Assembly: GCA_051362555.1 (NCBI GenBank)
Contig: CM120647.1
Location: 5,580,001 to 5,644,000, forward strand
Reading direction: 5' to 3'
DNA from: Lingula anatina
Taxonomy: Eukaryota > Animalia > Brachiopoda
DNA: 64,000 nucleotides
Part shown: positions 6,180 to 54,670 of the stretch, in pieces
Layout: the number at the start of each line of letters is the position of its first letter
How positions within the stretch are numbered: the first letter of the stretch is position 1
Position numbers and translations under genes: made by a program
The notes under the pieces: model-generated
The model's input: the letters and a program-made list of their open reading frames with translations, nothing else
What the model was told of the DNA's origin: nothing
Database searches by the model: none

Positions 6180-6805
6180 CATTTACACTATATTGCTATT
6201 TATTGACTGTTTAACTGCTTGCTTTTCAGATATCGTTTGATAAGAAAACGAAGTTAGAGCATCAATTTAACAGTATAAGGATCATATTTTAAAACAAAAT
6301 GGATTGTTTTAATTCTACAAAAACGTTAATCACTTTATACTATTACTAATTGCGATCTAAAAGGATCGAAAACACCATCAAAACATGTCCAGTGACCAAA
6401 GCAGACTGTCTGGATGTCATGATTATAACTTCTGCTCTGTGGTGATATTAATGACCAATGAAGGTCGCATTACCCAAAGTTACTTCATTTCTTGTATTTA
6501 TATATATATCAGAAAAAGAGGGCTTCACTTTCCATTTTTATAAAACGACATGATGTACATTAATTACACGTTGCCCATGCCTACGATGGTCAGTTGTTTG
6601 TTCTTAGTAGTTCAAAATCTGTTTGCGATGAGATATGTTGAGAAAAGGACCAGTTGGATGAAAAATACGCAAATATGTTTATATTACACCAATCAAATCA
6701 CTGATTTTCTTTTCATCTCCGGCACGATCTTGTACCAATCCAGGTTGACTCTTGCAGGAAAGCGGAAGTCACGTGTTGGAAGGATAGTGTGCCCAGATGA
6801 TACAA
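6180..6805 (-). other. Non-coding last exon (3' UTR) of gene B with poly(A) signal
   Basis: Acceptor tttcgtctttcag|TTGTATCATCTGG at 6805 is conserved at 15553 (C), 27980 (D) and 40300 (E). AATAAA at 6199-6204 lies in a context conserved in all four genes. Confidence 0.65.
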
Positions 6806-7122
6806 CTGAAAGACGAAAGAGGAATAAATAAATAAATAAGTAAATAAATATAGATAAATTAACTGTTTTTGTCTGCAGGTCATTTTGCCAAACAGACAGT
6901 TAAGATTTAATAACTTTAACGTACATGTACAGGTGATGTGCACAAAGATTGGAATGAAAATATTTAAATTAATCTTTTCTTTCAGAGAGAGTTTATGGTA
7001 ATTCAACATCAACGCAACTTTCAGAGTAATATTTTATCTACGCAAGATCACATTTAGTCTGAATTGCATAATTTTACACAGTGACTTCATGCTATTTACG
7101 TACGTTCTTTACCTCTTTACCG

Positions 7123-10100
7123 TTAAAGATCCAGGAGTCTTTTAAGTAGGTTGATATTGGCATCTTCACCTGAAAGCAAAGTCATACAAAGTTATATTAA
7201 AATATCGAAGTAGGTATGCAGACACATAATTACTGAAGCGGCTTCTGTAAACTTAGATGATAAACGAAAGTCAGAAGTGTCCACCTGCCATAAAAACTGT
7301 TTGCAAATGAATTTTATCACTAATTCAAGTTTCTAACTATAAAAAAACTGTTCGCATGCGTGTGTTCTTACCGTAACCTCTTCGGTTCAGTTCGTCGTCG
7401 GTCTCACCGTCGAACACCCGCTGGGTTTTATACCCTGAAATGGGACGACAAAAATCAATGCAATGCTTTTTTCTGTTACAAATATGGGACCAAATATGGG
7501 TGCATTTTTAAGAATTAAAATACAGAAAGATACAGTTTCCATGCAGTTAATTTCCCATTGTGTATTTTTTCTATGTTTATTCATTATATCATTACTTTCC
7601 CCTAAGGCCCAAGTGTATGTGCCTGTGAGCTGTGATTGGTCAGTCGTCACATGTGTACATGTATGTTTGTGTGTTACCTCCGAAACGCCGTTTATCGTCG
7701 TTAATCCTCTGTGCTCTATACCCTGAAATTGAGCAGGCATAGTAATAATAATAATAATAATAATAATCGTTTTATTTCCTTGGAACTTTTCGATGATTGT
7801 GCATTTTCATAAAATAGAGGTTTTCTATATAAAAAATTACACGTTCGCATATAACCATTGCTTTTTTATTTTTCAATTGTTCTTTTTATGTTGTTTATAT
7901 TTTAATGCACATTTCGATATCACAGGTCGTCCTAGTATAACATGTTACAAAATTATGTTTGAACTGAGCAATAGCAACACTAATGGTCAGAAAATACTTT
8001 GAAGGCATTTTTGCTCGAATTTTCATTTCTTAATGCATCTGAATTCCAAATGCAAGCTTTAAAGTACATAGATTAAACTGCCATCGCAATGTCCTTCTGA
8101 ACCGTAGATCTTTGAAAGGTCCAAGACAAATATAATTGAGAGATATTTTCGTCTATATTATACAAGATTAGAGGCTACAATGTCAGATTGTATTACGAAT
8201 GTTTTTTCGGAAGGTGCGTATCTTGTTAATCTCAAGAAGGCAGTGGGTTCTAAATGATCGGCAACTAATTAATTTTTAAATAATTATTATTAAAAATTGT
8301 AAAAAAAAAAAAAAAACATCGACTTAACTGCACCAATAAAGAATTGAAAATTGCAGATACAGGTATTTGCTTTTTTCTAGAGAAAAAATCCGTTTTGGCG
8401 CGAAGAGCACGGTAACAAGGACCTCTTAAGGATACTTATAAATATAGCTCTTTGAGTGCTGATGTTGTTGTAGTTTCTGTTTGTATATGTGTTTTTATCC
8501 ATGCAAGTGTGCTTTTACTTTTACCTCTTTTTTCTGTTTCTATGTCGGTGGATTTGTCAGTTCCCTTTTCAGCTCTATACCCTCTATACCCTAAATAAAA
8601 ATGATAATTGTTTTGTAGTATCTTGCCCGGCACCAAATAACAACAATGGAATATCTCTCCAAACTTTATTCACTCGAAAGTATATCGTTTTTGTTTTAAG
8701 ATATACCAAAGACATATATTTCTTCGCCTAATCATCACACCAACCAAAAATTATTCTTCAAATCAGACCTTCACTAAAATAAACATAGCAAAAACAGTAA
8801 CTAGTTATTTTTCGCTGCAAAGACAAGAATACACCGCGGTTTAAATGAGTCGTAACACGGTAAGATTTTTTTCTTTAAAAATGCTACAAAACAGCTATCA
8901 CAAATGAGGGAACGGATGGAGCAATGATTTTTCAGCAGGACAATGCACTTTCTTCGTCTACTCACCGTGCCCATATCCTGAAACAAATAAGGAGGTTCCA
9001 AATTTATATTTCGTCTGTTATCATAATAAAAACGGCGATGGTCACAGGCCTTTTGAGACTTCAACACCAACTTTGTGATACAATTTAATTACCAAACTAA
9101 ATGTCTTTTAATGACTCTGACCTTTTTTTTAGATTAAAAATCTTTTTAAATCCGAGCAATTCAGTCTACCGAACATTTTAAAAAAGAACTCAAAACATAC
9201 CTTTTTAGGAAATAATTGGTTTTATAAATCTTGTATTAATTGCATTTAATCGTATGGATTAATGGCTGTTTTACCTAGATTTTATTTATAATATTTTATG
9301 TAGTATCATTTATGATATTTTATGTAAAGTCTACTGAACATTTAAAATGGATTTTAGACTTAAAATAAATTTATTATTATTATTTATTATTAATTTAAAG
9401 TTTATTTTCATCAACTGTATCCGGGAAATGATTTCTCAGTAGGAAAATGCACTTTCTTCGTCTACTTACGGTAACACCTTCGTCTACTTACCGTAATATC
9501 CTGAAACAAATAAGTAGGTTCCAAATTAATATTTTGGCTGTTACCATAATAAAAACGTGTGGTCACAGGATTTTTGAGACTTCAACACCAACTGTGTGAT
9601 CCGGTTTTATTACCAAACAAAACGTCTTTTAATGACTTTTAATGACCTTTTTTTAAATTGAAAACCTTTTAATTAAAAGTATATTTTGATCAATTGTATC
9701 CTTTAGTTTTTAATTACTTTTATAACTTAGTTTTTAATTCATCTGTGCAGTTTTAGTTTTATATACATGTACATATGCCGAGACGCATTTAAGAAATAAG
9801 TTATTATCGTTATTATTATAAAATCATTCATTTTGATTATATCTGTTCACGTTCATGTGCTTGTGTGTGTGTTTCGATGATTAATAACTGCAAATATTGT
9901 AGGTGTAATGTTTGGTCACCGTAAAATCTCTTCATTTTGTCTTTTTCATCACTGTCGTCGACGTCTTGGTCGTCTAAAACAGAAATTAAGCAAGCATTTT
10001 GCTATTCAAGAAACTGTTTGATAGACATCTTTACCCAAGTAATTTAATTCAGGAAAATTTTAAAGTAACAATTAGATAACGCACCTAACTTCATATATTT

Positions 10101-10487
10101 AATTAAGCCTAAAATATCATTTTTTTACTTACATAAATCTTTAACTATATTAAACGTTACTCTGTCCAACGGACATTTTCATTTGTCAAGTGGTCATTAA
10201 CAGAAATTAAAGACAAAAGACGGAAACGATATGGATGGGCCTTCATTACAATGACGTCATAAAGACAGACAACAATGCACTCCAACAGAATCCCACGCCT
10301 TTAAAGACATAACTGAAATACTTCACTTCATACTGCATCAAGATAAAACATCAACTTCTAGTGCACAGATTCATCGAACAAAAAAGAGACAGTACCAGAA
10401 ATTAGCTTTTTTTCTCGCGGAAAATTCGTTTTGATGCGAAGAGCAAGATCACAAAGATCTTATAAGGATACTTTTAAGTATAACTCT

Positions 10488-10531
<44 letters not shown>

Positions 10532-11974
10532 ATACATGCGTGCGTGCTCTTACCGTTACCTCTTTTCTCCGCCTCTATGTCAGTGGCTTTGTCGTTTACC
10601 TTTTCAGCTCTATACCCTCTATACCCTAGATAAAGAAATAATAATTGTTTAATAGTATCTTGCCCGTGACCAAAATAACAGCAATGGAATATCTCCCCAA
10701 ACTTTATTCACTTGAAAATATACCGTTTGTATTTTAAGATGTGCCAGAGTCATATATTCCTACGTCTAATTATCTCACCAAACAAAATCTATTTTCCAAA
10801 CCAGAGATTTAAACGAAAAAAACAACAACAAAATATTACCTGGTGTAATCACTTTTGTCTGCATAGTCAAGAAGTCAAGGCGGTTTAAATGAATCATAAT
10901 ATACTTAGAACTATTTTTTCATCAGGCTTGCTATAAATTTCTCAGTTGGAAAGAGTTTTTTCTTCGTCTACTTACCGTACCTATACGGATACCCTGAAAG
11001 AAAACATGTAGGTTGCAATTGAATGTGTTTTCTGTTACCATAATAAAAATGGCGATAATAAAAGCGTATGGTCACAGGATTTTTGAGATTGCAACGCCAA
11101 TTTTGTGATCCAATTTTATTAACAAATCAAATGTCTCTAAATGGCTCTCATTATTATTTTTAAAAAATTAAAAACCATCTTATTTATAGTATATTTTGAT
11201 TAAATATATCTTTTAGTTTTTAATAACTTTTATAATTTGTTTGTTTTTTATTTATGTTTTATATACATATGTAATCAGCGCTGAGACGCTTGTGTGGTGC
11301 GGTTTTAAGAAATAGATTATTATAATTATACAACTATTCATTTTAATAATATAAATTCACGTTCATGTGTTTGCCTATATGTTTCAATATTAAGTGTTTG
11401 CAGGTACTGTAGGTGTTACGTTTGGTCACCGTAATATCCGCCATATCTCTTTACTTCGTCTTCAGTCTCACTGGCGGCGACTTCTTGGTCTTCTAGCACT
11501 ATTATATTATATTATATTATATTATATTATATTATATTATATTATATTATATTATATTATATTATATTATATTATATTATATTATAATTAAGCAAGTATT
11601 TTATTATTCAAGAAAACTCAGATTGAAATCATTACCTAGATATTTAAAATCTGATTATTTTAGCAATATCTTAGATAACACACAGAAACTCATATATATT
11701 TAAGACCCCACACACGCTCACACAAACAAGCACAAATACGGGTAGACACAACCACACACATAACAAATCAAAAGATCAAAATAAAACGCAAATGTGCAAG
11801 CACACACATATACACACCCAAAATCAAGAATACCTAAAAACAAAACAAAGATACAAACTTAGACACACACACAAAACACACACACACTGTTTTCTTACCT
11901 CTCTCTCCCAATACTCCTACATGCATAATAACCAGCCCACAAACTAGGAAGAAAAGAAGAAGTGGATTCTTCAT
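7123..11974 (-). CDS. Gene B: secreted KR-processed Gly/Tyr/Arg-rich repeat peptide precursor (~178 aa, 11 coding exons)
   Basis: Exons: 11899-11974 (signal MKNPLLLFFLVCGLVIMHVGVLGER), 11430-11498, 10976-10993 (18 nt), 10554-10625, 9920-9973 (shifted acceptor), 9492-9500 (9 nt), 8966-8977 (12 nt), 8519-8590, 7678-7722, 7372-7434, 7123-7169 (GEDANINLLKRLLDL*). All internal exons are multiples of 3, phase 1-1, and join without a stop. Confidence 0.8.
11501..11586. repeat. (ATTAT)n pentanucleotide microsatellite at the exon-2 acceptor of gene B (also 24068-24126 in gene C)
   Basis: Directly visible; absent from gene A at 2884-2890. Confidence 0.95.
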
Positions 11975-12044
11975 AGCTAAATTCCGATCGGTTGTCGCCA
12001 CGTCTGTGATTTTACAAGCAGTGTCCGTTTATCGGTCAAAGTAA

Positions 12045-12098
12045 AATGAGCTGCTGGCAGATATTCGCGGCTATTATATCATTTGGGAGTCACGCCCA
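12045..12098 (-). promoter_or_regulatory. Core promoter of gene B (TATAATA variant, Inr-like, GGGCGTG)
   Basis: Aligns with the gene A promoter; TATA at 12072-12078 reads TATAATA. Confidence 0.6.
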
Positions 12099-14929
12099 CC
12101 GCTCTGTCACAACTTTAATAAGAGTGTGGACCTGGGGAGTGACTGGGTTCCCATACCTACATCGATCTAACTGGATAGATCCATCTCCGAGAGGTTAATC
12201 GCTTAATTGATTTCACCTTAAGCGGCTTCGATGTCTGCGGCACATCTACTGAGGCTGCTAAATAATAATTAATTATTACCCTCTACCAGGGTCGCAGTTA
12301 CATTTGTGGACATTTTTGGCTGAATCGACATCAAACCAAAGTGACGGTCTAGAGACATATCGGTTAATATCTTTGGAAAATCTATCTGTCGCCCTGGTAG
12401 AGGGTAATTAATTACCCCCTAGCAACTTCAGTAGCAGGCGTAACAGACATCTAAGCTTCATAAGTTGATTGCAATTTAGGGAGAATCTCCTCGGAGATAG
12501 ATTGATCCACAGTATGTACAGGCATGGTCCCTAAATGAAGTCGTTTATCATCATTATAGCGGGACAACCGTAGAGGTGAGACCCACCTTGGGATATAATC
12601 AACCATGATATAGAGAATTGCCGGACAAGATATTTTTGTGCGCGGTGACTTCGATTACATTCAGCAATTTTTCTCATCATGAAAACAGAGTTCAAAAAAG
12701 GCTTTAAAAACGGCTGTTGAATATTTCGGAAAAGGCAGCTATGTGGTTTATTTTATTAATTCCCGTTTTCTACGACGATGGTTTTAGAAGTACAGTCATG
12801 TATACATCAATATTTACGAACCATGAGCGACTGTTTTATTTAAAACAGAGGAAAATAACACAATTGTCCTGAAAACCCGATAGTTTCAAAAGTTTCTTCC
12901 GTCTCAATTCAGAGGCATTTTTATAATGCAAACCTAATTTGCGTTATGTCGGTCCTGTATATCATCATAGTATCAGTAAACACATTAATCAGGTGATGCG
13001 ATAATATTTTACCCGGTATGTCATTTAATAAACATGCATATTTCCTTTTGTGGTATATAAACTGTGTCGTTAACATTGGAACTCATCCTTAGTTCATATG
13101 CACCAGTAGTGTTGTCAAAACAATTTAATGTAAAACAAGCAAGAAAAAAATTCAAGCGTTATCTTTGCTGAGAGAGAGGGAGAGAAAAGAGAGAGACCCT
13201 GTTTTTTTTTTTTTTTTTTTGTTTGTTTTTTTTTTTTTTTGTTTTTTTTTTTTTTTTGCGAAAGCAATGCTTGAGCCCTACTTGGAGTCAGAGCATACCG
13301 GGTAGCTATACAATACAATAACCTGCATCACTGATAATCTCCGACAACTTTCCTGGACACATTTTCATCCCAAACAGGTATATCAATGCCACAATGGAGT
13401 TACGCCACTGTGTCATTAATACCCCCTCTCCGCGTTATCAAGGTGTCGATTACGTCACTATCAAATTAACACCACCTCTCCCGCTCAGGTGACTTTATTG
13501 TGTGCCAAAGGCAATGACAGGGGGTGTTATTACAGTCTGTATGAAATGTAGCTAGGAATTTTAATTCTGTAAGAATGAGAAATGCACAGAGGCATATTGT
13601 GCGGATTCGAGAATTTGACCCCTTAAAAATTAATAAAGATTAAAAGAAAACTGAAAAGCACGCCGAAAGCGCAGGCCCCCACCAAAGCAGTTCAGTTCTT
13701 ATTGTTATTTATTAATCAGTTTCTCAATAATTTAATTAGCTTAATTATCATTATTATGTATTACTTACTTATTCACTCATTGATCAGCAAATTTTTCACA
13801 TTTTACCAATTCATTATTATTTCACTGATCAACACCAAAATCTAAACTATTCCTTACCTGTTCGGAGAATTTTACCAAAATCTCTCAACAATTTTTGCAT
13901 ATTGATGCTTAAGGACACACAACCAAATAAATTAACTAATTGATATTTAACCATTCCCAACAGTTTCTGAATATCTAACCAAATTACGTCCAGAATTTTT
14001 TTTCATAATTTTGCCAACATAGAAGCAGATAAAGGGAACCAAGCATATAAAGTGACATCCTTGGCAAAAGCAATTATAGAAAAGAAAAACCTTTTTATTT
14101 AAAGAACATTTTGCTTTACTTTTATCTGTTTGTTTTAATATTGTAATGTTAGTTTTTAATTTATCTTTAATAGTGTATGTAAATATTTAAATTAAAATAT
14201 GTAAATTATTTAAAGCGTCCCATCTACTTTGACACTGTAAAAATACGATACGATTAGTCAGAGATTTCGAAGAGAAAGTATATTAGACATGTCCTGCAGA
14301 AAAAGAAAAACAAACAAACACAGAATGTGTATTTCTAAGCAGCGATGAAGACACTAAAAAGGGAAGAAAGAATGCAAATATTATGTAGTCTCTACTTGCT
14401 CGAAAGAACCTTTTTTTTTTGTTTGCAACCACTAACGCGTTCACTTCTACGCCATTTACAAAAAAACACTGAAACTATTGACGGGAAATTATTTTATATT
14501 TTCCATTCAACTGGCGGCAAAGATGAAATTTCGATTAAGACTTAACGATTGAATGGACGACTATTTTGATCGGTAAGGCATACTTTGCACGTTAGATCAT
14601 TAAATGAAAAATACCGAATATCACGGATACAGCATAGCAAAACAAAATGACGAACAATGACAATATTGACAATATAAATATATATTTAAAAAACTCATAT
14701 TATTTAAAATTACACTTAAGGTATGTATTATGGTTAAGGATCTAAAGTTAACTTTCCTGAGGATTTCAACAATTAGTTGTCAGTCACAAAGATACTTCCT
14801 ATACGAGATGGTTGCATTATTGTTATGGGTAGGAGCACACACAGCATCTATACCATTCAACTATCACACACTTTTAACACATCTGGCTTTCGAACAAATT
14901 GGAAAAGAAACAAGAAACACAAGGTACAT

Positions 14930-15553
14930 TTACACTTTATTGCTATTTATTGAGTGTTTTATTGCTTGCTTTTCAGATATCGTTTGATAAGGAAACAAAG
15001 TTAGAGCATAAATTGAACAGTATAAGGATCATATTTTAAAACAAAATGGATTGTTTTAATTCTACAAAAAAGTTAATCACTTTATACTATTACTAATTGC
15101 GATCTAAAAGGATCGAAAACACCATCAAAACATGTCCAGTGACCAAAGCAGACTGTCTGGATGTCATGATTATAACTTCTGCTCTGTGGTGATATTAATG
15201 ACCAATGAAGGTCGCATTACCCAAAGTTACTTCATTTCTTGTATTTATATATATATCAGAAAAAGAGGGCTTCACTTTCCATTTTTATAAAACGACATGA
15301 TGTACATTAATTACACGTTGCCCATGCCTACGATGGTCAGTTGTTTGTTCTTAGTAGTTCAAAATCTGTTTGCGATGAGATATGTTGAGAAAAGGACCAG
15401 TTGGATGAAAAATACGCAAATATGTTTATATTACACCAATCAAATCACTGATTTTTTTTTTCATCTCCGGCACGATCTTGTACCAATCCAGGTTGACTCT
15501 TGCAGGAAAGCGGATGTCACGTGTTGGAAGGATAGTGTGCCCAGATGATACAA
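14930..15553 (-). other. Non-coding last exon (3' UTR) of gene C
   Basis: Conserved acceptor at 15553; AATAAA at 14946-14951. Confidence 0.62.
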
Positions 15554-15870
15554 CTGAAAGACGAAAGAGGAATAAATAAATAAATAAGTAAATAAATATA
15601 AATAAATTAACTGTTTTTGTCTGCAGGTCATTTTGCCAAACAGACAGTTAAGATTTAATAACTTTAACGTACATGTACAGGTGATGTGCACAAAGATTGG
15701 AATGAAAATATTTAGATTAAACTTTTCTCTCAGAGAGAGTTTATGGTAATTCAACATCAACGCATCTTTCAGAGTAATATTTTATCTACGCAAGATCACA
15801 TTTAGTCTGAATTGCATAATTTTACACAGTGACTTCATGCTATTTACGTACGTTCTTTACCTCTTTAGCG

Positions 15871-16690
15871 TTAAAGATCCAGGAGTCTTTTAAGTAGGTT
15901 GATATTGGCATCTTCACCTGAAAGCAAAGTCATATAGTCCGGTTGCTTAGGGCAAAAAAATGGCCAAATCGTGACACGGCGGATAAAAGCACCAAATTTT
16001 GCATGTGGGTACCTTTTGACATACTAAATCAAATTAGAGCCGTAGCCCACGGAAAAAAATTACCGTTTGGCCAAAAAATCCAAAATGGCCGCCAATTTGT
16101 GAAATTTTGTAGAAATATATACATACTTTTGTTGATTTTTATCAAATAAAGTATTTTCTCAGTGTTTTCCACATCCTTATTACCCATATTATGCATGTAT
16201 GTCAGATGAAAAACGAGTGTCCTTGGACTTTTTGAAAATACAAGATGGCCGCCGTATGGCATAGGAATACTAGAACATGTACAAGGGTTTTCAACTAATG
16301 CCAACTAGGAAGATGCATTGCCCACTATCTAATTAATTTTGTTTCTGAGTGCCTTATTACAGAAATAATATATTTTGGTAAGTAACTAACCTTTATTCTC
16401 AGGCATTTCGAGAAAAATCCAAGATGGTCGCCATATCAAAGAAACACTATAGTATACACATAGGGCTTCTTCTGCCATGGAGATATAATATTAATTGATA
16501 AATTAGGCTTGTTTCTGAGTATTTTCCACATCTTTTTAATCCACATAATATATATGTGATGAGAATGTTATGTGTATCCTTTTTGAAACAAAACAAAATG
16601 GCTGTCAATAGCCATAGAAGGTGGGGTTAAGTTAATACCTGCGAGAGATAGGCTTCAATATAAAATGAAGCTAAATTCAGTTGTTTTTCT

Positions 16691-16735
<45 letters not shown>

Positions 16736-19030
16736 CCCATGATACATGTCTGTTAGGTAAGTAATGTTCATATTTGATCATTTTGGGGAAATCCAAGATG
16801 GCCTTCTTTTCCCCATAGGAAAACTGGTGCATTGGATTTTATAGGCACTTCTACGGCAAATCAGGGTCATTATGATATTTTGTCAAAATACTTAACGGTA
16901 CACACTTGTAATCCACCAGATAGATATCTCAAAGTCCAAAAAGAATGTGAAATACCAAGAAACAAAAATCATTTTATAATGAACCCAATGTCTCTCTGGC
17001 ACTAGTTGACTGTACTATTCCTATTGTGAATTGCAGCAATCTTGAATTTTCTCAAATACGCTAGATGCACACTTGCTACACCCCAGATTTATATAGAGTA
17101 AGGTTAATAAGGATGTCAACGTGTTTGAACATCAAACGGCTTTATTTCATGTTGGAATCAATGTCTGAACTGTTCCATTAATTGACACCTCTGTGCATTT
17201 GAATGATATATTCCTATCGCAACTGGCAGCTATCCTCGGTTTTCTCCGAATAATACTCAAGGATACATACACTTTCTACACACACACACACAAAGTCTTT
17301 CATAAGGATAAATAGGATATGAAAGGGAAAACGTTTAAAAACAATCAAAAGTTAACTACATTTAAATTGTACTCAGTGTATCTCTGGCATTATTTGATTA
17401 TGTGTACGAATATTCTAATGACAAAAGGCAGATATCTTGAATTTTTTTCAGAATACCCAAAGATACACACATGCTACAGACGAGGTTTACATCATAGGGG
17501 TAATAATAAATGGAAAGAAAAATGTAGATTATTTTTAAAACAAACCCATGGTAATGTAATTGTATAATGAACCACATGCCGCAATTGAAACCCACCCATT
17601 AGTATTCCTATGTCAAATTGTAGCTATTTTGGATTTTCTCAGAATATCCATGGATGCACACTATTTCCCCACCAGATATATATCATAGGAATAATAAGGA
17701 TGGGCAAAACTTAATAAGCAAACACAATTTCACCCTGGTAGTAGATGAAAAGCCATGGATGTGCAGTTGTAATTCCAGTAGCATTCCTATGGCCAATGAC
17801 GGCCATCTTGGATTTTCTCAGAATGATCAAAAATGCACATTTATTACCTGCTAGATATGTATCACAGTGTAATAATAATGTGTAAAACACTGAAAAATAA
17901 ACTGAATTTGACAGTGAATTATGTTTTTCCTAGCTGGCATTAGTTCTAACCCTTTGTAATACTAGAAGAATTCCTATGACATATGGCGGCCATCTTGGAT
18001 TTTCTCAAAATGCCCAAGAATACATGTTAGTAACTCACCACATACATTGTGTGGGTGGAAAGGATGTGGAAAACACTCAGAAACAAACTTAATTTGATAG
18101 TGGAAAATTAATCTTTCCAGTTGCCATTAGTTGAATCTCCCGTATACTAGAATTCCTGTGGCACATGGCAGCCATCTTGGATTTTCCAAAATGCCCAAGA
18201 ACACTTCGCAGTTTCTCACCACAAACATATTATGTGGGTAACAAAAACCTGAGAAACAGACTTAATTTGATAGTGCACAACATATCTTTATAGCTGGTAT
18301 TAGTTATGCACTAGATTTCCTATGGCTGTTTCTATGGCATATGACAGCCATCTTGGATTTTTTCAAAAAGTCCAAGGGAACTTGTTTACTATCTGACATA
18401 TATGAATAAAATGGGAAATAAGGGTGTGGAAAACTCTGAGTAAATAATTTATTTGATAAAAATAAACATGGGTATGTACATATTTCTAAAGAATTCCATA
18501 AATTGGCGGCCATTTTGGATTTTTTGACCAAACGGTAAATTGTTTGAGAGGGCTACGGCTCTAATTTGATTTAGAATGTCAAAAGGTAACTACATGCCAA
18601 ATTTGGTGCTTTTATCCGCCGTGTCACGATTTTTTCCTTAAGCCACCGGACTAATACAAAGTTATATTAAAATATCGAAGTAGGTATGCAGACACATAAT
18701 TACTGAAGCAGCTTCTGTAAACTTAGATGATAAACGAAAGTCAGGTGTTCTCACCTGCCATAAAAACTGTTTGCAAATGAATTTTATCACTAATTCAAGT
18801 TTCTAACTATAAAAAACTGTTCGCATGCGTGTGTTCTTACCGTAACCTCTTCGGTTCAGTTCGTCGTCGGTCTCACCGTCGAACACCCGCTGGGTTTTAT
18901 ACCCTGAAATGGGACGACAAAAATCAATGCAAAGCTTTTTTTCTGTCACAAATATGGGACCAAATATGGGTGCATTTTTAAGAATTAAAATACAGAAAGA
19001 TACAGTTTCCATGCAGTTAATTTCCCATTG

Positions 19031-19062
<32 letters not shown>

Positions 19063-19226
19063 GTTTATTCATTATTTCATTACTTTCCCCTAAGGCCCAA
19101 GTGTATGTTCCTGTGAGCTGTAGTTGGTTAGTCGTCACGTTTGTACATGTATGTTTGTGTGTTACCTCCGAAACGCCGTTTATCGTCGTTAATCCTCTGG
19201 GCTCTATACCCTGAAATTGAGCAGGC

Positions 19227-19258
<32 letters not shown>

Positions 19259-21373
19259 TGTTTTATTTTATTAAAACTTTTTCAATGATTGTGCATTTTC
19301 ATAAAAAATGAGTTTTTCTATATCAAAAATTGCATTGTTGCATATAACGCACCATGACTTTTTGGCGAAAAGAACAAGGTAACAAGGACCTTTTAAGGAT
19401 ACTTTTAAATATAACTCTTTGTGTGTGAGTTGTTGTTGTTGTTGCTGTTTGTATGAGTGTTTTTATCCATGAAGGTGTGCTTTCACCTCTACCTCTCTTC
19501 TCTGTCTCTATGTCGGTGGCTTTGGCATTTGCCTTTTCAGCTCTATACCCTAAATAAAAATAATAATTGTTTTGCAGTATCTTGCCCGTCATCAAATAAT
19601 AACAATGGAATATCTCTCCAAACTTTATTCACTTGAAAGTACCGTTTTTGTTTTAAGATGTACTAACGTAATATATTTCTTCGCCTTATTATCTCACCAA
19701 CCAAAAATTATTCTTCAAATCAGTACCAAGTGCCATTATATTAGGCTGCAAAGACAAGACGACATCGCGGTTTAAATGAGTCATAATAAGCTGAGAACTA
19801 TTTTTCCATTCAAAATGCTACAAAACAGCTATCACAAATAAAGGAACGGACCGGGCAATGATTTCTCAGTAGGAAAATGCATTGTCTTCGTCTACTTACT
19901 GTACCCATATCCTGAAACAAATAAGGAGGTTCCAAATTTATATTTCGTCTGTTGCCATAATAAAAACGGCGATGGTCACAAGCCATTTGAGACTTCAAAA
20001 CCAACTTTGTGATACAATTAAATTACCTAACCAAATGTCTTTTAATGACTCTGACCATTTTTTTTAAATTAAAAACCTTTTTAATTTAAAGTATATTTTG
20101 ATCAGCTGTATCCGGGCAATGATTCATCAGTAAGAAAATGCACTTTCTTCGTCTACTTACGGTAACACCTTCGTCTACTTACCGTAATATCCTGAAACAA
20201 ATAAGTAGGTTCCAAATTAATATTTTGGCTGTTACCATAATAAAAACGTATGGTCACAGGATTTTTGAGACTTCAACACCAACTGTGTGATCCGGTTTTA
20301 TTACCAAAAAATCGTCTTTTAATGACTTTTAATGACCATTTTTTTTAATTAAAAACCTTTTAATTTAAAGTATATTTTGATCAATTGTATCCTTTAGTTT
20401 TTAATTACTTTTATCACTTAGTTTTTAATTCATTTGTGCAGTTTTAGTTTTATATACATATGCTGAGACGCATTTAAGAAATAAGTAATTGTCGTTATTA
20501 TTATAAAATCATTTTGTTTATATCTGTTCACGTTTATGTGCTTCCGTATGTGTTTCGATATTTTGTAACTGCAGGTATTGTAGGTGTTTTGTTTGGTCAC
20601 CGTGAAATCTCTTCATTTCGTCTTTTTCATCACTGTCGTCGACGTCTTGGTCGTCTAAAACTGGAATTAAGCAAGCATTTTGTTATTCAGAAAAACTGTT
20701 TCATAGACAGCATTGCCTAAGTAATTAAATTCAGGAAAATTTTGAAGTAACAATTAGATAACGCACCTAACTTCATATATTTAATTAAACCTTTCACACG
20801 CCTCCCCATGTGTCGTCCCAATGGAGCCGAGATTTAATGACTGTACCCCCACAGGGACGACGCATAGGGAGGCGTGTGAGAGGCGGAGAGACTATTAAAA
20901 GATTAGGCGGTTTTCCTTTCATGTATGTATGCCATATTTAGTTCGTGACTTTGTAGAGCCATGGCTCAACTCATTGTGAATGCGGTCCTACAATATCTTT
21001 TTTTTTTTTACTTACATAAATCTTTAACTATTTCTAACGTTACTCTGTCCAACGGATATTTTCATTTGTCAAGTGGTCATTAACAGAAATTCAAGACAAA
21101 ACACGGAAACGATACGGATGGGCCTTCATTACAATGACGTCACCAAGATAGACAACAATGCACTCCAACAGAATCACACGCCTTTGAAGACATAAGTGAA
21201 ATACTTCACATCATACTGCATCAAGATAATTAAAACTTCAACTTCTAGTGCACAGAGTGATCGAACAAAAAAGAGACAGAAGCAGAATTTTGCTTTTTTT
21301 TCTCGCGAAAAACCCGTTTTGATGCGAAGAGCAAGATCACAAACATCTTATAAGAATAATTTTAAATATAACG

Positions 21374-21414
<41 letters not shown>

Positions 21415-23154
21415 TGTATGTTTATATACATGCGTGCGTGCTCTTACCGTTACCTCTTTTCTCCGTCTCTGTGTCAGTGGCTTTGTCGTTTACCTTTTCA
21501 GCTCTATACCCTCTATACCCTAGATAAAGAAATAATTGTTTTATAGTATCTTGCCCGTGACCAAAATAACAGCAATGGCATATCTCCCCAAATTTTATTC
21601 ACTTGAAAATATACCGTTTGTATTTTAAGATGTACTAAAGTCATATATTTCTACGTCTAATTATCTCACCAAACAAAAACAATTTTCCAAATTAGAGCTT
21701 TAAACGAAAAAAAAACAACAAAATAGTGCCTGGTACTATAATTTTTGGCTGCATAGTCAAGAAGACAAGGCGGTTTAAATGAATCATAATATGTTTAGAA
21801 CTATTTTTCATCAAACTTGCTATAAATCTCTTAGTTGGAAAAAGAATGTTCTTCGTCTACTTACCGTACCTATACGGATACCCTGAAAGAAAACATGTAA
21901 GCTTCAATTAAATGTTTTTTTTTTTGTTTTTTTTTTTTTTTAATATAATTTCATAATAAAAAAGGCGATAATAAAAACGTATGGTCACAGGATTTTTGAG
22001 ACTACAACACCAATTTTGTGATCCAATTTTATCAACAAATGTGTCTTTTAATGGCTCTTATCATTATTAAAAAAAGGTACGTTTTTATTTACATAATGTT
22101 TTGATTAACTGCATCTTTTAGTATTTAATTACTTTTATAATTTATTTTTTATTTAGCTGTGCACATTAAGTTTTTAATATACACATGTAAACAAAGCTGA
22201 AACGCATGTGTTGCCTTGTTTTTGAGTAATTTATTATTGTTATTATTATCATTATTATTATAATTATTTTAAAAAAACATTCATTTTGGTAATATCAATG
22301 CACGTTCGGGTGCTTGCATGTATGTTTCAATGTTATGTGTCTGCAGGTACTGTATGCTTAGGCTCTATTCCCATAGATTTTAGATCGATCTATCCCCGCG
22401 GGGAGTCTCACTAGATTACTTTCAGATAATCCGACTTAAATGTCCGTCCCGCCTACTACAAGCTGTAAGAGGGTAATTAACTTTCGTGTCCGCCCGGCTG
22501 ACAGCTATTTAGCGTGAACCCCCAGGGAGTTAGGTCGATCTAAAGTAGGTCGATCTAATCTATGGAAATGGGGTGTTAGTTTGCATGGTCACCGTAATAT
22601 CCGTAAGATCTTTTCATTTCGTTGTTTTCATCACTGGCGCCGACATCTTGGTCTTCTAGCACTGGAATTAAGCAAGCACTTTGTTATTCAAGAAAACTAT
22701 TTGATAGACATCATTACTAGCTTAGCACTTTAAATCAGGGTTAATGTTTAGTAATAGCTTAGATAGCACTTTACCTCACATATTTTATGAAGCCCACATT
22801 TTTTGTTATTGAATAATATCATTTTTCAAATCTTTTCACTTAAATGCACTTTTACTTATTTCAAACGTTTCAATACCCAACGGATAGTGGTTATTAACAG
22901 AAATCAACGACAAAATACGGATAAAATATTAGCAGAAACCAACGATTTGAATAGACATTTATTCACATGACATCATAAAGATAGACAACATTGCACGCCA
23001 ACAGAATCAGACGCCTTTAATACTTCACTTAATACTTCACTTCATACTACATCAAGATAAAAAGGATACTATAAATATAACTCGCTCTCGCTCTCTCTCT
23101 ATCTCTCTCTCTTTTTCTTTCCTCTCTGTGTATTTGTTGTTGTTGTTGTCGATG

Positions 23155-23192
<38 letters not shown>

Positions 23193-24519
23193 GTTTATAC
23201 ATGCGTGCGTGCTCTTACCGTTACCTCTTTTCTCCGCCTCTATGTCAATGGCTTTGTCGTTTACCTTTTCAGCTCTATACCCTCTATACCCTAAATAAAG
23301 AAATAATAATTGTTTAATAGTATCTTGCCCGTGACCAAAATAACAGCAATGGAATATCTCCCCAAACTTTATTCACTTGAAAATATACCATTTGTATTTT
23401 AAGATGTACTAAAGTCATATATTTCTACGTCTAATTATCTCACCAAACAAAAACTATTTTCCAAACCAGAGCTTTAAACGAAAAAACAACAACAAAATAG
23501 TACCTGGTACAATAATTTTTGTCTGCATAGTCAAGAAGACAAGGCAGTTTAAATGAATCATAATATACTTAGAACTATTTTTTCATCAGGCTTGCTATAA
23601 ATTTCTCAGTTGGAAAGAGTTTTTTCTTCGTCTACTTACCGTACCTATACGGATACCCTGAAAGAAAATATGTAGGTTGCAATTGAATGTTTTTTCTGTT
23701 ACCATAATAAAAACGGCGATAATAAAAGCGTACGGTCACAGATTTTTGAGACTACAACACCAATTTTGTCACCCAATGTATTTTAACAAATCAAATGTCT
23801 CTAAATGGCTCTTATAATTATTTTTAAAAATTAAGAACCATCTTATTTATAGTATATTTTGATTAAATATATCTTTTAGTTTTAAATAACTTTTATAATT
23901 TAGTTTTTCATTTATCTGTGTAGTTTTAGTTTTATTCACGTTCATGTGTTTCAATATTTAGTGTCAGCAGGTACTGTAGGTGTTATGTTTGGTCACCGTA
24001 ATATCCGCCATATCTCTTTACTTCGTCTTCAGCCTCACTGGCGGCGACTTCTTGGTCTTCTAGCACTATTATATTATATTATATTATATTATATTATATT
24101 ATATTATATTATATTATATTATTATAATTAAGCAAGTATTTTATTATTGAAGAAAACTGTCAGATTGAAATCATTACCTAGGTACTTAAAATCTGATTAT
24201 TTTAGCAATATCTTAAATAACACACCAAAACTCATATACATTTCAAGCTCCCACACACGCTCACACAAACAAGCACAAATACGGGTAGACGCAATCACAC
24301 ACATACCAAATCAAAAGATCAAAATAAAACGCAAATGTGCAAGCACACACATATACACACCCAAAATCAAGAATACCTAAAAAAAAAAAACAAAGATACA
24401 AACTTAGACACACACACAAAACACACACACACTGTTTTCTTACCTCTCTCTCCCAATACTCCTACATGTATAATAACCAGCCCACAAACGAGGAAGAAAA
24501 AAAGAAGTGGATTCTTCAT
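15871..24519 (-). CDS. Gene C: secreted KR-processed Gly/Tyr/Arg-rich repeat peptide precursor (~230 aa, 14 coding exons)
   Basis: Exons: 24444-24519, 23997-24065, 23640-23657, 23219-23290, 22593-22661, 21865-21882, 21448-21519, 20601-20660, 20183-20191, 19900-19911, 19487-19549, 19166-19210, 18841-18903, 15871-15917. Joined translation: MKNPLLFFFLVCGLVIIHVGVLGERVLEDQEVAASEAEDEVKRYGGYYGYPYRYGYRGYRAEKVNDKAIDIEAEKRGNVLEDQDVGASDENNEMKRSYGYYGYPYRYGYRGYRAEKVNDKATDTETEKRGNVLDDQDVDDSDEKDEMKRFHGYYGYGYRYRAEKANAKATDIETEKRGRGYRAQRINDDKRRFGGYKTQRVFDGETDDELNRRGYGEDANINLLKRLLDL*. Confidence 0.82.
15935..18653. mobile_element. Non-autonomous DNA transposon, Academ-like (TAG...CTA termini, long TIRs, 3-bp TSD ATA)
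   Basis: Left end TAGTCCGGTTGCTTAGGG...CGTGACACGGCGGATAAAAGCACCAAATTT matches the reverse complement of the right end over roughly 300 bp. ATA is duplicated at 15932-15934 and 18654-18656. The empty site gtcATAcaaag is present in gene B at ~7181. Internal ~120-bp 'gccatcttggattt' subrepeats; no transposase ORF. Confidence 0.85.
20790..20988. mobile_element. Truncated copy of the palindromic MITE seen at 28862-29163
   Basis: Near-identical core cacacgcctccccatgtgtcgtcccaatggagccg...gggaggcgtgtgagaggcggagag; absent from the gene B equivalent intron (~10110). Confidence 0.7.
22361..22575. mobile_element. PIF/Harbinger (Tourist-like) MITE, TTA TSD
   Basis: TTA on both sides (22358-22360, 22576-22578); TIR ...ttcccatagattttagatcga / tcgatctaatctatggaaat. 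Same family as 28539-28764 and 58636-58849. Confidence 0.75.
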
Positions 24520-27489: not shown

Positions 27490-27980
27490 ACACTATATCG
27501 CTTTTTATTGACTGTTTAAGTGCTTGCTTTTCAGATATCGTTTGATAAGAAAACAAAGTTGGAGAATAAATTTAACAGTATAAGGATCATATTTTAAAAC
27601 AAAATGGATTGTTTTAATTCTACAAAAACATTAATCACTTTATACTATTACTAATTGCGATCTAAAATGATCGAAAACACCATCAAAACATGACCAGTGA
27701 CCAAAGCAGACTGTCTGGATGTCATGATTATAACATTAATTACACGTTGCCCATGCCTAAGATGGTCAGTTGTTTGTTCTTAATAGTTCAAAATCTGTTT
27801 GCGATGAGATATGTTGAGAAAAGGACCAGTTGCATCAAATACACACAAATATTTTGATATTTCGCCAATCAGATCATTGATTTTTTTAAATCTCCGGCAC
27901 GATCTTGTACCAATCCAAGTTGACTCTTTCAGGAAAGCGGAAGTCACGTGTTGGAAGGATAGTGAGCCCAGATGATACAA
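27490..27980 (-). other. Non-coding last exon (3' UTR) of gene D
   Basis: Conserved acceptor at 27980; AATAAA at 27504-27509; ~120-bp deletion relative to B/C at ~27733. Confidence 0.62.
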
Positions 27981-28363
27981 CTGAAAGACGAAAGAGGAAT
28001 AAATAAAGAAAAAGATAAAACTAAATAAGTAAATAAATAAATAAATGAACTGTTTTTGTCTGCAGGTCATTTTGCCAAACAGACTGTTAAGTTTTAATAA
28101 CATTAACGTGCATATACAGGTGATGTGCTCAAAGATTGGAACGAAAATATTTAAATTAAACTTTTCTCTCAGAGAGAGCTTATGGTAATTCAACATCAAC
28201 GCAATTTTCAGAGTGATATTTTATCTACGCAAGATCACATTTAGTCTGAATTGCATAATTTTACACAATGACTTTATGCTGTTTACGTATGTTCTTTTTT
28301 ACCTCTGATTTATTGAATATAATATATAATATTATGAACTATTGTTACTTCTTTCACATTACC

Positions 28364-31300
28364 TTAGTGCTTTTTCCTTTGAAGATCCAGGAGTCGTTTA
28401 AGCAGGTTGATATTGGCGTCTTCAACTGAAAACAAAGTCATACAGAGCTACAATAAAAACATCAGATGTGGGTATTCAGACAAATAATAATTGTCTGCAG
28501 ATACATATATAATTACTGAAGCAGCTTCTGTAACCTTAGGGTGCTTTCCCAGAGATTTAGATCGATCTAAAGATTAAATTTTAGATCGACCTAACTCCCT
28601 GGGGGTTCAGGCTTAATTGCAGTAAGCCGAGCGGACACCATAGTTAATTACCCCCTTACAGCTTTTAGTAGGCGGGACAGACGCTTAAGCCGGCCAAGCT
28701 GACAGTAATCTAGTGAGACTCCCCACAGGGATAGATCGATCTAAAAATCAATGGAAATGGGGTGTTAGATGATAAACTCAAGTCATGAGTGCCCAACTAC
28801 CATAATTTATCACCATAAAAACTCTTCGCACACGTATTTTATCACAAATTTGTGTTTCTAAGATCGCATTCACAACGAGTTGAGCCAGGCTTTACAAATC
28901 CTGGGGACTAAATATGGCGGACGTACATGAAAGAAAAACCGCCTAATCTTTTAATAGTCTCTCCGCCTCTCACACGCCTCCCCATGTGTCGTCCCAATGG
29001 AGCCGAGATTTAATGACTGTCCCCCCGCAGGGACGACGTGTGGGGAGGCGTGTGAGAGGCGGAGAGACTATTAAAAGATTAGGCGGTTTTTCTTTCATGT
29101 ACGACCGCCATATTTAGTCCCCAGGATTTGTAAAGCCTAGCTTAACTCGTTGTACATGCGATCTAAGTGTATGGATACTGCAAACAGAGGGGTGACAGCA
29201 TTCTATTACGAATTTCTCTATCTGTTAATTTTTTCATAATGTTGAATTTATCTATACGACCTAAACAGTCTGTCCTTGCGTCGGTTACGACGTGTGTATA
29301 TGTATGTATGTTACCTTTGGAGTGGCGTTTCTGTTCGTCATCGTTGTCACCGGATTTGTCGTTAACTTTGGTCCCATAGTAACCTGCAGCAGATAGAGGT
29401 TATTGTCATTTAGATTTTAGTTTAATGTTTCCAAAATTTCGACTGTTTTGCATTTTATCTGACGCAATTTGTTTAATCACAGAAACACCTTCTTACCGCG
29501 ACCTCCTCGCTTCAACTCGTCATCTACGTCACTGTCGTCCACCCGCTGAGCTGCATACCATGAAAATAAGACGACAATTTATTATTCTCGTCTGCTTCAA
29601 ACATTAAGACAGTCTTACCGTTTCAGTTTCGGGATTTATATATATTCTCTCTGTAATTTGTTTCGAAAAAAAAGTTACATACATCTTCGTTTCATGTTTA
29701 CCATATCTCTTTATAGCATAAAAGAGTGTGGTTATTGGTTATTTATTATGTGTGTACAGGTATGAGACCGTCTATGTTCCTACTACAGTAAAATGCATGT
29801 GTGCACTGCCGTGTGTATATGTACTAGCACGTGTTTATGTTTACGTGCGTGTGTGCTTACCGTGAACTCTACCGTAACCTCTTCGCTTCACTTCGTCATC
29901 CACGTCACTGTCGTCCACCCGTTGAGCTCCATACCCTGAAAAGTGGGTGACTATTAAATATTCTCGTCTGCTACAAATATTAAGACAGCGTTGCATTATC
30001 ACAGGTTCGGGGTCAATTCTATTTGTAATTTTTTGGGAAAATGTTACATACATATTTACGCCTTTCATATCCCTTTATAGAGTGCATGAGTTTGTGAAGG
30101 CGATTGGTTATTGATTATGGGTGTGTATATATGAGAGCATGTTACCTCTGGAAGCTTTGAAGCGCCGTTTCTGTTCGTCGTCAACGTCGTTAAGTTTAGC
30201 TCGGTAGTAACCTGAAACAGATATAGGTTATTATATTTAGCCTTTTGTTTGTTTCTAAAGTTTCTATAGTTTTCCATTATCGGTCTTAAGGTATAAAAAC
30301 AAATAGATATATTTTGACTCATAAAAACCGTGGGTTTCTTTCTGCAGCGTAATGTTTTTTATCGCCCCAGAATTTATTTTAAATGCAGTGCAAACCTATT
30401 CTTACCATTTCAGAAACCATTATTTCTGCCCTAAGCTTGACAAAGATACTACTTCAGGTAGAATGCATTCGTGCAGGGTAGTGTGACCATACGCGTGTGC
30501 ATGAACCTGCACGTGTTCATGTTTGTGTGCGTGTCATCTTACCGTAACCTCTTCTCTTCACCTCGTCATCTACGTCACTGTCGTCCACCCGCTGAGCTGC
30601 ATACCATGAAAATAAGACGACTATTTATTATTCTCGTCATAAAGACAGTCTAACAGTTTCAGTTTCGGGATATATTCTCTCTGTAATTTTTTTTTCGTAA
30701 AAAGTTACATACATCTTCGTTTCATGCTTTCCATATTATTATTTCCATATTTATTATGTGTGTACAGGTATGAATGCGTCTATGTTCCTACTACAGTAAA
30801 ATGCATGTGTACAATGCCGTGTGTACCAGCACGTGTTTATGTTTGCGTGCGTGTGTGCTTACCGTGAACTCTACCGTAACCTCTTCGCTTCACTTCGTCA
30901 TCTACGTCACTGTCGTCCACCCGTCGTTGAGCTCCATACCCTGAAAAGTGGGTGACTATTTAATATTCTCGTCTGCTACAAATATTAAGACAGCAATGCA
31001 TTATCTCTGTTTCGGGGTTAATTATATATTTTTATGTTTGCTATCTATCTGCATCATACGGTATTTTTAGTATTCATTATCGCCCTAGAATTTATTTTAA
31101 ATGCAGTGCAAACCTATTCTTACCATGGAAGAAACCATTATTTCTGCCATGAGCCTGACAAAGATACTACTTCAGGTAGAATGCATTCGTGCAGGGTAGT
31201 GTGACCATACGCGTGTGCATGAACCTGCACGTGTTCATGTTTGTGTGCGTGTGTTCTTACCGTAACCTCTTCGCTTCACTTCGTCGTCTACGTCACTGTC

Positions 31301-32164
31301 GTCCACCCGCTGAGCTGCATACCATGAAAATAAGACGACTATTTATTATTCTCGTCATAAAGACAGTCTAACAGTTTCAGTTTCGGGATATATTCTCTCT
31401 GTAATTTTTTTTTTCGTAAAAAGTTACATACATCTTCGTTTCATGCTTTCCATATCCCTTTATAGCATAAAAGAGTGTGTGTGTTTGTGATGGCCATTGT
31501 TTATTTATTATGTGTGTACAGGTATGAATGCGTCTATGTTCCTACTACAGTAAAATGCATGTGTACAATGCCGTGTGTACCAGCACGTGTTTATGTTTGC
31601 GTGCGTGTGTGCTTACCGTGAACTCTACCGTAACCTCTTCGCTTCACTTCGTCATCTACGTCACTGTCGTCCACCCGTCGTTGAGCTCCATACCCTGAAA
31701 AGTGGATGACTATTTAATATTCTCGTCTGCTACACATATTAAGACAGCATTGCATTATCACTGTTTCGGGGTTAATTATATATTTTTTATGTTTGCCTTC
31801 TATCTGCATCGTACGGTATTTTTAGTATTCATTATCGCCCTAGAATTTATTTTAAATGCAGTGAAAACCTATTCTTACCATTTCAGAAACCATTATTTCT
31901 GCCCTAAGCTTGACAAAGATACTACTTCAGGTAGAATGCATTCGTGCACGGTAGTGTGACCATACGCGTGTGCATGAACCTGCACGTGTTCATGTTTGTG
32001 TGCGTGTGTTCTTACCGTAACCTCTTCGCTTCACTTCGTCATCTACGTCACTGTCGTCCACCCGCTGAGCTCCATACCCTGAAAGGTGGGCGACTATTTA
32101 GTATTCTCGTCTGCTTCAAACATTAAGACAGTCTAACAGTTTCAGTTTCGGGATTTATTCTCTC

Positions 32165-32201
<37 letters not shown>

Positions 32202-34638: not shown

Positions 34639-34669
<31 letters not shown>

Positions 34670-34899
34670 CCCAGAGAGAGATTGAAAAACCCAAATACAT
34701 ACAATTACATATATACATGTACACACACCTAAAAAGACGCAGACACAGTCATAATCTGACTCAAGTTGGGCACTCTCAAACATACAAATACACACAAATA
34801 CACACACAATGCACATACTGGTTACTTACCTTCCTCTCCAAATATTCCTATTATAACAAGTCCACAAACGAAGAGAAAAAGAAGGGATGGATTCTTCAT
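28364..34899 (-). CDS. Gene D: secreted precursor with tandem GYGAQR-VDDSDVDDEV-KRR-GYG units (~336 aa, 16 coding exons)
   Basis: Exons: 34830-34899 (MKNPSLLFLFVCGLVIIGIFGEE), 34216-34242, 33882-33929, 33467-33529, 33080-33145, 32653-32736, 32016-32078, 31617-31694, 31261-31314, 30863-30940, 30543-30596, 30146-30211, 29861-29935, 29497-29550, 29315-29383, 28364-28425 (VEDANINLLKRLLDLQRKKH*). All internal exons are symmetric phase 1. Confidence 0.8.
28539..28764. mobile_element. PIF/Harbinger-like MITE, TTA TSD
   Basis: TTA duplicated; the empty site tgtaaacTTAgatga is present in genes B (~7250) and C (~18722). Confidence 0.8.
28862..29163. mobile_element. Long palindromic MITE, TAA TSD
   Basis: gatcgcattcacaacgagttgagc...gcttaactcgttgtacatgcgatc with ~130-bp inverted arms; flanked by TAA; absent from the B/C equivalent introns. 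Confidence 0.8.
29430..33960. repeat. Tandem exon-intron array inside gene D (period ~350-400 bp, dimer ~720-755 bp)
   Basis: Near-identical intron and exon blocks recur, e.g. exons at 30543/31261/32016/33467 and 29861/30863/31617/33080. Confidence 0.9.
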
Positions 34900-39589: not shown

Positions 39590-40300
39590 TTTACAATGCT
39601 GCGATTTATTGACTGTTAGTAAATAATTTTTTTCTAGATTATCATTTGCCCGCTTTAGACTTTAATCAGTTACGATCTTAAAGAATATAAAAAAATGGTC
39701 GGAAATAACCAAAAAATCATCATGTCCAGTAACGGATGCGGTCTGTCTTGGATGGTATCTAATTGTCTGTGGTCATATTGTCGAACAGTTGGACACACTC
39801 CAAAAAGTAGTCTCGTTCCTGATTTACAGCATAAAGAAAGATTGACGTCCACGTTGTCTCTGATGGGAACACTGAACCAGTAGTTCGAGTTCTGTTGTAA
39901 AAATTCAATGCGAAAATTCAAATCTCGCGAGAATCTTGCGGGAATTTTACACTGGGAAACGGTGTAACGAAACTGAGGGTCCGTGTGACAGAGAGGCCGC
40001 CCTCCATTTTGTAATAATGGTTAGGGTTAGTCTGACCTAAGTGGGTCAAAATCTAGGGCGAGGCTTACCTGTAGAAATGAATGGGAAGCGGACTCCCTAT
40101 CATGGGGGACTCTCTATCACGTTACACTGGTATGGTTTCTCAGGCATGTAAATTAATATGTAAATTTGTAGTCAAGTAGTTTAAATAAAAATAATCACTC
40201 AACATCTCAGAACGAAGTGGTGCTTATCCAAAAGAAGTTTGTTCTCGCGGGAAAGCCGAGGTCACGTATTGGAAGGATAGAGTGCGTCCAGATGATACAA
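39590..40300 (-). other. Non-coding last exon (3' UTR) of gene E
   Basis: Acceptor tttcgtctttcag|TTGTATCATCTGG at 40300. AATAAA at 39605-39610 lies in the context aacacaag..tttaca..gc.atttattgactgtt shared with B-D. Confidence 0.6.

Positions 40301-41187: not shown

Positions 41188-41222
<35 letters not shown>

Positions 41223-48444: not shown

Positions 48445-48487
<43 letters not shown>

Positions 48488-49269: not shown

Positions 49270-49343
<74 letters not shown>

Positions 49344-52808: not shown

Positions 52809-52845
<37 letters not shown>

Positions 52846-53376: not shown

Positions 53377-53410
<34 letters not shown>

Positions 53411-53722: not shown

Positions 53723-53765
<43 letters not shown>

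Positions 53766-54621: not shown

Positions 54622-54670
<49 letters not shown>

Follow-up and report, generated by a model that had tools for sequence, protein, structure and literature searches.

In the honeybee apidaecin gene one peptide is encoded per exon, and the units are split by an acidic spacer and a dibasic site (PMC3415428, in part). The mussel myticalins exhibit a signal peptide, a cationic region rich in Pro, Arg and Tyr, a Lys-Arg site and an acidic extension, and form a variable multigene family (PMC5577615, in part). The micro-exon genes (MEGs) of schistosomes encode secreted proteins with a signal peptide and short exons of 6-81 nt, most of which have lengths that are multiples of three (3n) (PMC10526429, in part). 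Here we describe a tandem gene family on the minus strand of a 64-kb stretch of the brachiopod Lingula anatina genome (assembly GCA_051362555.1, contig CM120647.1, positions 5,580,001 to 5,644,000; hereafter the window, GC content 36%). Three of its genes (A, B and C) duplicated recently and share long blocks of 92-96% likeness; the paralogues D and E are older, each with many repeat exons. Eight segments of 9, 12 or 18 nt in genes A to C are, judging from their sequence, very probably real coding exons, and we see an even chance that they serve, included in most transcripts, as building blocks of a precursor that is cleaved into several peptides.

The Lingula family resembles apidaecin in its predicted secreted multipeptide precursor, repeated units and exon-by-exon layout (PMC3415428, in part). 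However, no sequence similarity to apidaecins was found; these are Pro-rich, and in the Lingula family one peptide is predicted to be assembled from 3-4 exons including micro-exons. The order of cationic head, dibasic site and acidic tail recalls the myticalins, which differ in having one mature peptide per precursor, encoded in one exon of a three-exon gene (PMC5577615, in part). No homology with them was detected: the Lingula signal exon is unlike the printed myticalin consensus, and genes B and C possess 11-14 coding exons. MEG exons are mostly about 15 nt long and diversify the product by alternative splicing (PMC10526429, PMC5825161, both in part). In B and C, by contrast, exons of 36 nt or less account for only 7-8% of coding bases (all coding exons being of 81 nt or less), coding exons of 18 nt or less number 3 of 11 in B and 4 of 14 in C, so that very short exons are not the majority, and the product carries convertase sites. 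The schistosome MEGs are thus an analogy only.

The closest relative by sequence is another Lingula anatina gene. A profile built from 19 exon translations, searched against 1.84 billion representatives, matched only isoform X2 of LOC106162183 (XP_013394820.1, E-value = 7.7e-6). With this isoform (P0001) as the query, only the two LOC106162183 isoforms were found among 93 proteins of near length. Word-indexed searches of longer proteins gave no match to the profile at E<=10 among 7994 scored, and none to isoform X2 among 938. No Pfam family was assigned to any of seven exon translations, and the ESM Atlas yielded no usable match. The first 24 residues of isoform X1 are identical to the gene C signal exon (24/24), and isoform X2 agrees with gene D at 13 of 18 positions. 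LOC106162183 shares with the window family a homologous signal exon, the start of exon 2 and a repeat unit of the form Y-R-A-E-K...D-K...E-K-R, which makes it a member. It is annotated as uncharacterized, with no assigned function; its two isoforms differ in the first exon, and both look like models joined across the tandem cluster. No description of the family was found in literature searches or in motif or accession searches of the supplements of relevant papers.

Micro-exons and the predicted precursor

The eight micro-exons are as follows.

789..806, minus strand: 18-nt micro-exon of gene A (G-Y-P-Y-R-Y, phase 1-1)
10976..10993, minus strand: 18-nt micro-exon of gene B (G-Y-P-Y-R-Y type)
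21865..21882, minus strand: 18-nt micro-exon of gene C, second module
23640..23657, minus strand: 18-nt micro-exon of gene C, first module
9492..9500, minus strand: 9-nt micro-exon of gene B (G-Y-Y)
20183..20191, minus strand: 9-nt micro-exon of gene C
8966..8977, minus strand: 12-nt micro-exon of gene B (G-Y-G-H; GTGAGT donor)
19900..19911, minus strand: 12-nt micro-exon of gene C (G-Y-G-Y; final base A; lowest donor score)

A preliminary description of this DNA had proposed such exons, bounded by AG and GT, with strong tttcag acceptors and GTAAGT or GTGAGT donors. All eight were recovered at their noted places. The sequence tttcag precedes each of them, and the donor is GTAAGT in seven and GTGAGT in one (8966-8977). 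All three types are 3n in length, and the 18-nt sequence is identical in its four copies. On translation none of the eight contains an acidic spacer or a dibasic site (KR), in agreement with the same description. Its statement that they insert only Gly-Tyr modules is too narrow: the 18-nt exon also brings Pro and Arg, the 12-nt exon of B brings His, and the terminal A of the 12-nt exon of C turns the junction codon into Arg.

We scanned the window with splice-site matrices trained on 30 longer exons of the same window (donor cut-off 6). Seven of the eight micro-exons pass; the donor of the 12-nt exon of C scores 4.6. Micro-exon acceptors score 11.1-14.5, the long exons exhibiting a lower quartile of 10.3 and a median of 15.4. 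The scan returned 21 AG..GT pairs of 30 nt or less on the minus strand, nine of which are 3n and at most 18 nt long, and none on the plus strand. Twenty Markov simulations gave a mean of 0.35 and a maximum of 2 pairs in this shorter 3n class, against the nine observed. The training exons belong to the same family, and a few of their coordinates are off, as negative minimum scores indicate. In addition, the eight micro-exons represent three cassette types of one ancestry. The scan thus shows exon-like structure rather than eight independent events.

The genes that carry the micro-exons were modelled as follows.

375..3274, minus strand: gene A, 5' part (signal exon 3274-3199, spacer-plus-KR exon 2877-2815, micro-exon, repeat exon 446-375); it runs off the window start
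6180..11974, minus strand: gene B, predicted precursor of 172-176 aa
11974-11899, 11492-11430, 10993-10976, 10625-10554 (or 10560), 9973-9920 and 9500-9492, minus strand: gene B exons 1-6
8977-8966, 8590-8519 (or 8525), 7722-7678, 7434-7372 and 7169-7113 (stop), minus strand: gene B exons 7-11
6806 to a poly(A)-like signal at 6199, minus strand: gene B predicted 3' untranslated region (UTR) exon
14930..24519, minus strand: gene C, 14 coding exons from 24519 to 15861, with one extra spacer/micro-exon/repeat module; predicted precursor of 224 aa
15553 to a poly(A)-like signal at 14946, minus strand: gene C predicted UTR exon

In silico splicing with all micro-exons included yields these B and C precursors without an internal stop. 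Both exhibit a signal-like start (22-23 residues, hydrophobic as translated), acidic spacers, dibasic sites and heads rich in Gly, Tyr and Arg. In a typical repeat exon a head containing Tyr is followed by a basic hinge, then by an acidic tail and a dibasic site, so that units with acidic spacers and dibasic bounds follow one another exon by exon, in an exon list partly selected for this trait. Of the 46 listed repeat exons, 38 have a basic residue ahead of the acidic tail, although such counts are partly circular, the 46 having been filtered for 3n length and for Tyr or dibasic content. Genes A to C follow one order: an exon with spacer and KR opens a peptide, one or two micro-exons, which add no cleavage site, extend it, and its end is supplied by a full repeat exon.

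Convertases would cut this precursor at the dibasic sites and perhaps also at the hinge, which would release heads of 15-20 residues with 33-40% Tyr and a net charge of +2 to +3; the acidic tails would balance the charge of the heads during storage. Measured from dibasic site to hinge, the 18-nt exon gives a head of 20 instead of 14 residues, 8 instead of 5 Tyr and a net charge of +3 instead of +2. The 9-nt and 12-nt pair gives 18 instead of 11 residues and 6 instead of 3 Tyr in B, and 15 instead of 8 residues and 5 instead of 1 Tyr in C. Summed up, the predicted gain per head is 3-7 residues and 3-4 Tyr. The micro-exons would then act as genome-fixed building blocks that lengthen one peptide head.

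Probable inclusion of the micro-exons

The preliminary description took the micro-exons for optional cassettes setting peptide length and Tyr count. The effect on length and Tyr count stands as a prediction: inclusion would alter both. The optional nature is not supported so far, and we think that the micro-exons are probably included in most transcripts. Three points incline us to inclusion: the symmetry of exon phases is family-wide, the acceptor scores are like those of long exons, and differences in length are already fixed in the genome. These last are visible in the DNA as one 18-nt cassette versus a 9- plus 12-nt cassette pair, an extra module in C, and a 9-nt loss in the exon at 19549.

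In the alternative, one gene would give rise to peptides of several lengths and Tyr counts by alternative splicing, as in the schistosome MEGs. This is possible but rather unlikely. The reading frame does survive the skipping of any or all micro-exons in silico, but frame symmetry had to be rejected as a sign of optional splicing: every internal coding exon is phase 1-1 and 3n (9/9 in B, 12/12 in C), a family trait that follows from exon duplication. Very short exons between introns are prone to skipping, and exons of 9-18 nt lie here between introns of 271-710 nt; their splice scores nevertheless resemble those of long exons. Tandem donors 6 nt apart (giving 66/72-nt exons) and two acceptors of exon 2 suggest some looseness of splicing. 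A run search with the 3' UTR of gene B pointed to no RNA run, and nine raw RNA runs were taken as candidates by their species label. Four of these nine (X1, X4, X7 and X8) were mapped to the gene B region 6100-11497. They contain no skipping read, though no including read either: no read fell on any micro-exon, no splice joint was seen, and the exons from 7372 to 8977 had no read depth; close to the other micro-exons, the only reads lay on AT-rich intron repeats. The lack of reads on the micro-exons neither shows nor excludes skipping. The runs gave 4 (X1), 0 (X4), 51 (X7) and 42 (X8) reads, 97 in total; those of X7 and X8 fell on AT-rich intron repeats, and X1 left a trace of at most one fragment over the last two exons, at 90-95% likeness, probably from a paralogue.

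Several observations weigh against real, mostly included building blocks of a cleaved precursor, besides the circularity noted above. The four runs gave no transcript support for A, B or C, nearly all of the 97 reads lying on intron repeats. The public X1 and X2 models of LOC106162183 lack the micro-exon residues. Between B and C, conservation of the micro-exons taken by themselves does not significantly exceed that of introns (2/39 versus 198/2217 changes, p=0.57), nor do micro-exons plus splice sites differ significantly from introns (3/81 changes, p=0.11), and the codon changes comprise 10 non-synonymous and 4 synonymous ones. Peptides cut at the dibasic sites alone, with the hinge uncut, are predicted to have 26-31 residues and a net charge of 0 to -1, being neutral or acidic unlike a cationic antimicrobial peptide. 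On the other side, the long exons of B and C are less diverged than the introns (14/297 versus 198/2217, p=0.014), and the 18-nt exon is unchanged in 4/4 copies while overall cassette likeness falls as low as 81%. That the segments are silent intronic relics, or A to C unexpressed duplicates, would agree with the lack of observed expression in the four runs and with the non-significant conservation of the micro-exons, but is very unlikely given that splice sites are intact in all eight copies, that each of the three types is 3n long, that the frames are unbroken and that the long exons show constraint.

Origin of the cassettes and the tandem family

About 190-300 nt around each micro-exon are homologous. 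Identity is 81-98% among cassettes of the same type and 78-84% when 9-nt and 12-nt cassettes are compared; the 18-nt type aligns with either of these at 70-73%. Flanks that align across types bear out the proposed common ancestry. The donor-side motif has ten occurrences on the minus strand and none on the plus strand: one behind each micro-exon, and a further one 22 nt past each 9-nt exon. The duplicated donor reported in B and C is present, with the donor G at 9491/9469 and 20182/20160. Its second copies are the following.

9456..9477, minus strand: gene B, second copy of the 22-nt tandem duplication, with a second GTAAGT (G at 9469)
20147..20168, minus strand: gene C, second copy of the 22-nt tandem duplication (donor G at 20160)

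As a length cassette the second donor was rejected; its use would yield a 31-nt exon with an in-frame stop right after Gly-Lys. The simplest explanation from its sequence is that 22 nt were duplicated in tandem, neutrally, the second donor having a weaker base at -1.

Directly past a micro-exon donor, the intron is similar in sequence to the codons that specify the acidic spacer in full repeat exons. Among 26 exons the best match was 42883-42806 or 42201-42121 of gene E for all five cassettes tested, the five not being independent. Among 400 random intron controls with paralogous exons masked, the observed score was reached by 9 for the 9-nt cassette of B, 16 for the 12-nt cassette of B and 24 for the 12-nt cassette of C. 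Against this, both 18-nt cassettes were matched or beaten by 87/400 controls. Local alignment of the post-donor introns alone gave 21-30, compared with 14-27 for long-exon donors, which is not clearly higher. In two 48-nt repeat exons of gene E the Gly-Lys codons form a strong internal donor 12 nt in (49995-49984 and 45255-45244, minus strand); these are possible nascent 12-nt micro-exons.

The spacer likeness past the donor and the internal donors of gene E together suggest, weakly, a donor-truncated repeat exon as the ancestor. One repeat exon would have gained an internal donor, its spacer half becoming intron and its cleavage site shifting into the intron with it; the cassette would then have multiplied by exon and gene duplication. 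We hold this origin by donor capture to be plausible, at slightly less than an even chance. A more far-reaching version combines the birth of micro-exons from Gly-Lys hinge donors, with loss of the spacer to the intron and fusion of Tyr modules, with skippable cassettes that tune the dose of Tyr (or of its hydroxylated form, DOPA) in a secreted peptide for defence or adhesion. The 48-nt exons of gene E would then be an intermediate stage. We consider this version improbable.

The remaining paralogues of the window are listed here.

27490..34899, minus strand: gene D, a further paralogue; it has about 15 repeat exons, and nothing below 27 nt passed the splice scan as an exon
39590..54411, minus strand: gene E, paralogue with many repeat exons; 5' end of the model provisional

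All family genes open with a hydrophobic signal-like exon that ends in phase 1, and B, C, D and E each end at a conserved poly(A)-like signal, four in all. The stop codon sits in the second-last exon, and the last exon was accordingly ruled out as coding. The start of the predicted 3' UTR exon (6806, 15553, 28000 and 40306, minus strand) is conserved across B, C, D and E; it is open for about 35 codons in B to D and could code if splicing bypassed the exon that carries the stop.

A (TATAT)n run lies directly upstream of exon 2 in B (11498-11586) and C (24067-24125), where it displaces an upstream acceptor kept by gene A and apparently used by the RefSeq isoform X1. Gene A carries an insertion of about 1.5 kb (977-2525) in the intron preceding its micro-exon, absent from B and C and, by eye, resembling a retrotransposon fragment. 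An intron of gene C contains a 2.7-kb insertion (15935-18653), absent from B, whose long inverted ends show a likeness of about 76% over 640 nt.

At three exons of gene D (31323, 30605 and 29559, minus strand) the acceptor reads AT instead of AG, and 9 nt downstream an AG follows in frame. Some of its repeat exons (29861-32736, minus strand) possess a second donor 12 or 21 nt on, by which the head gains Gly, Tyr, His or Arg; by sequence, such donors are a second predicted route to variation in head length.

Nine listed repeat exons of gene E (43253-50958, minus strand) have a Gly-Lys-Arg/Gln hinge and would release short amidated peptides, unlike A to D. Gene E also contains internal multi-exon duplications (45091-48156 versus 49831-52872 at 97%; 47575-49628 versus 52866-54959 at 90%), for which recent expansion and assembly duplication are both possible. 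A possible broken first-exon end near 54880 (54870-54895, minus strand) bears on its 5' end. A further signal-like first exon lies near 60081 (minus strand), with several short exon candidates below it (55160-60081).

Possible functions and significance

By analogy with the myticalins and apidaecin, we tentatively favor a role of the peptides in host surface defence. Recent gene and exon duplication is a described route in antimicrobial peptide genes (PMC2853521, in part).

A DOPA-type adhesive role ranks close behind. In this view the heads, hydroxylated to DOPA, would work in pedicle mucus, periostracum or chaetae as adhesives or for quinone tanning, a possible but doubtful function in which the micro-exons would raise cross-linker density; it is compatible with fixed as well as optional splicing. 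A point of comparison is the mussel foot protein Mfp-3, which is rich in Gly and Arg and is not known to be a multi-copy precursor with acidic spacers. Mfp-3 is about 6 kDa with 10-20 mol% DOPA, its more cationic form adheres better, and the putatively DOPA-bearing Lingula heads share with it small size, Tyr richness and cationic charge (PMC12721214, in part), although no homology is shown. The 33-40% Tyr of the heads with neighboring Arg speaks for this role, and the near-absence of reads in the four RNA runs fits expression in a narrow tissue. The heads of D and E, however, contain only 1-4 Tyr, and the hinges of the nine gene E exons look like amidation sites. The Lingula shell proteins described in the available part of PMC4595640 are collagens and Ala-rich proteins. 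Family motifs were not found in the supplement text of the shell-proteome and 2026 biomineral proteomics papers, files that may contain no sequences. Motif or accession searches in the supplements of PMC4595640, PMC13425148 and PMC13121700, some of which may give only gene ids, revealed no description of the family.

It is unlikely that these genes encode lineage-specific neuropeptides or pheromones, the N-terminus of which the micro-exons would extend. The signal, the acidic spacers, the dibasic sites and the amidation-like Gly-Lys-Arg hinges of gene E would suit such precursors. Yet recent gene triplication, one unit per exon and the missing shared C-terminal motif, as seen in A to C, are atypical for neuropeptides. 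Nor were family motifs found in the supplements of two lophotrochozoan surveys (PMC8557429 and PMC6425005; one file covered in part).

Repetitive secreted proteins with short symmetric exons are already a known kind, as are precursors with one exon per peptide, which limits the surprise of the present case. If the origin by donor capture is true, the locus would clearly exemplify how truncation of an exon can give birth to a micro-exon and alter the proteolytic map; if the combination of donor birth and skipping is true, it would represent a MEG-like combinatorial secretome in a free-living animal. Taken from its sequence, the family is a multi-peptide precursor family of Lingula undescribed in the literature searched, with three micro-exon types of one ancestry. 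The public models of LOC106162183 miss the micro-exons and lack the extended Gly- and Tyr-rich heads, so catalogues of brachiopod peptides likely lack the family. With the predicted heads, a phylum in which few effector peptides have been characterised gains concrete candidates for roles in defence or wet adhesion.

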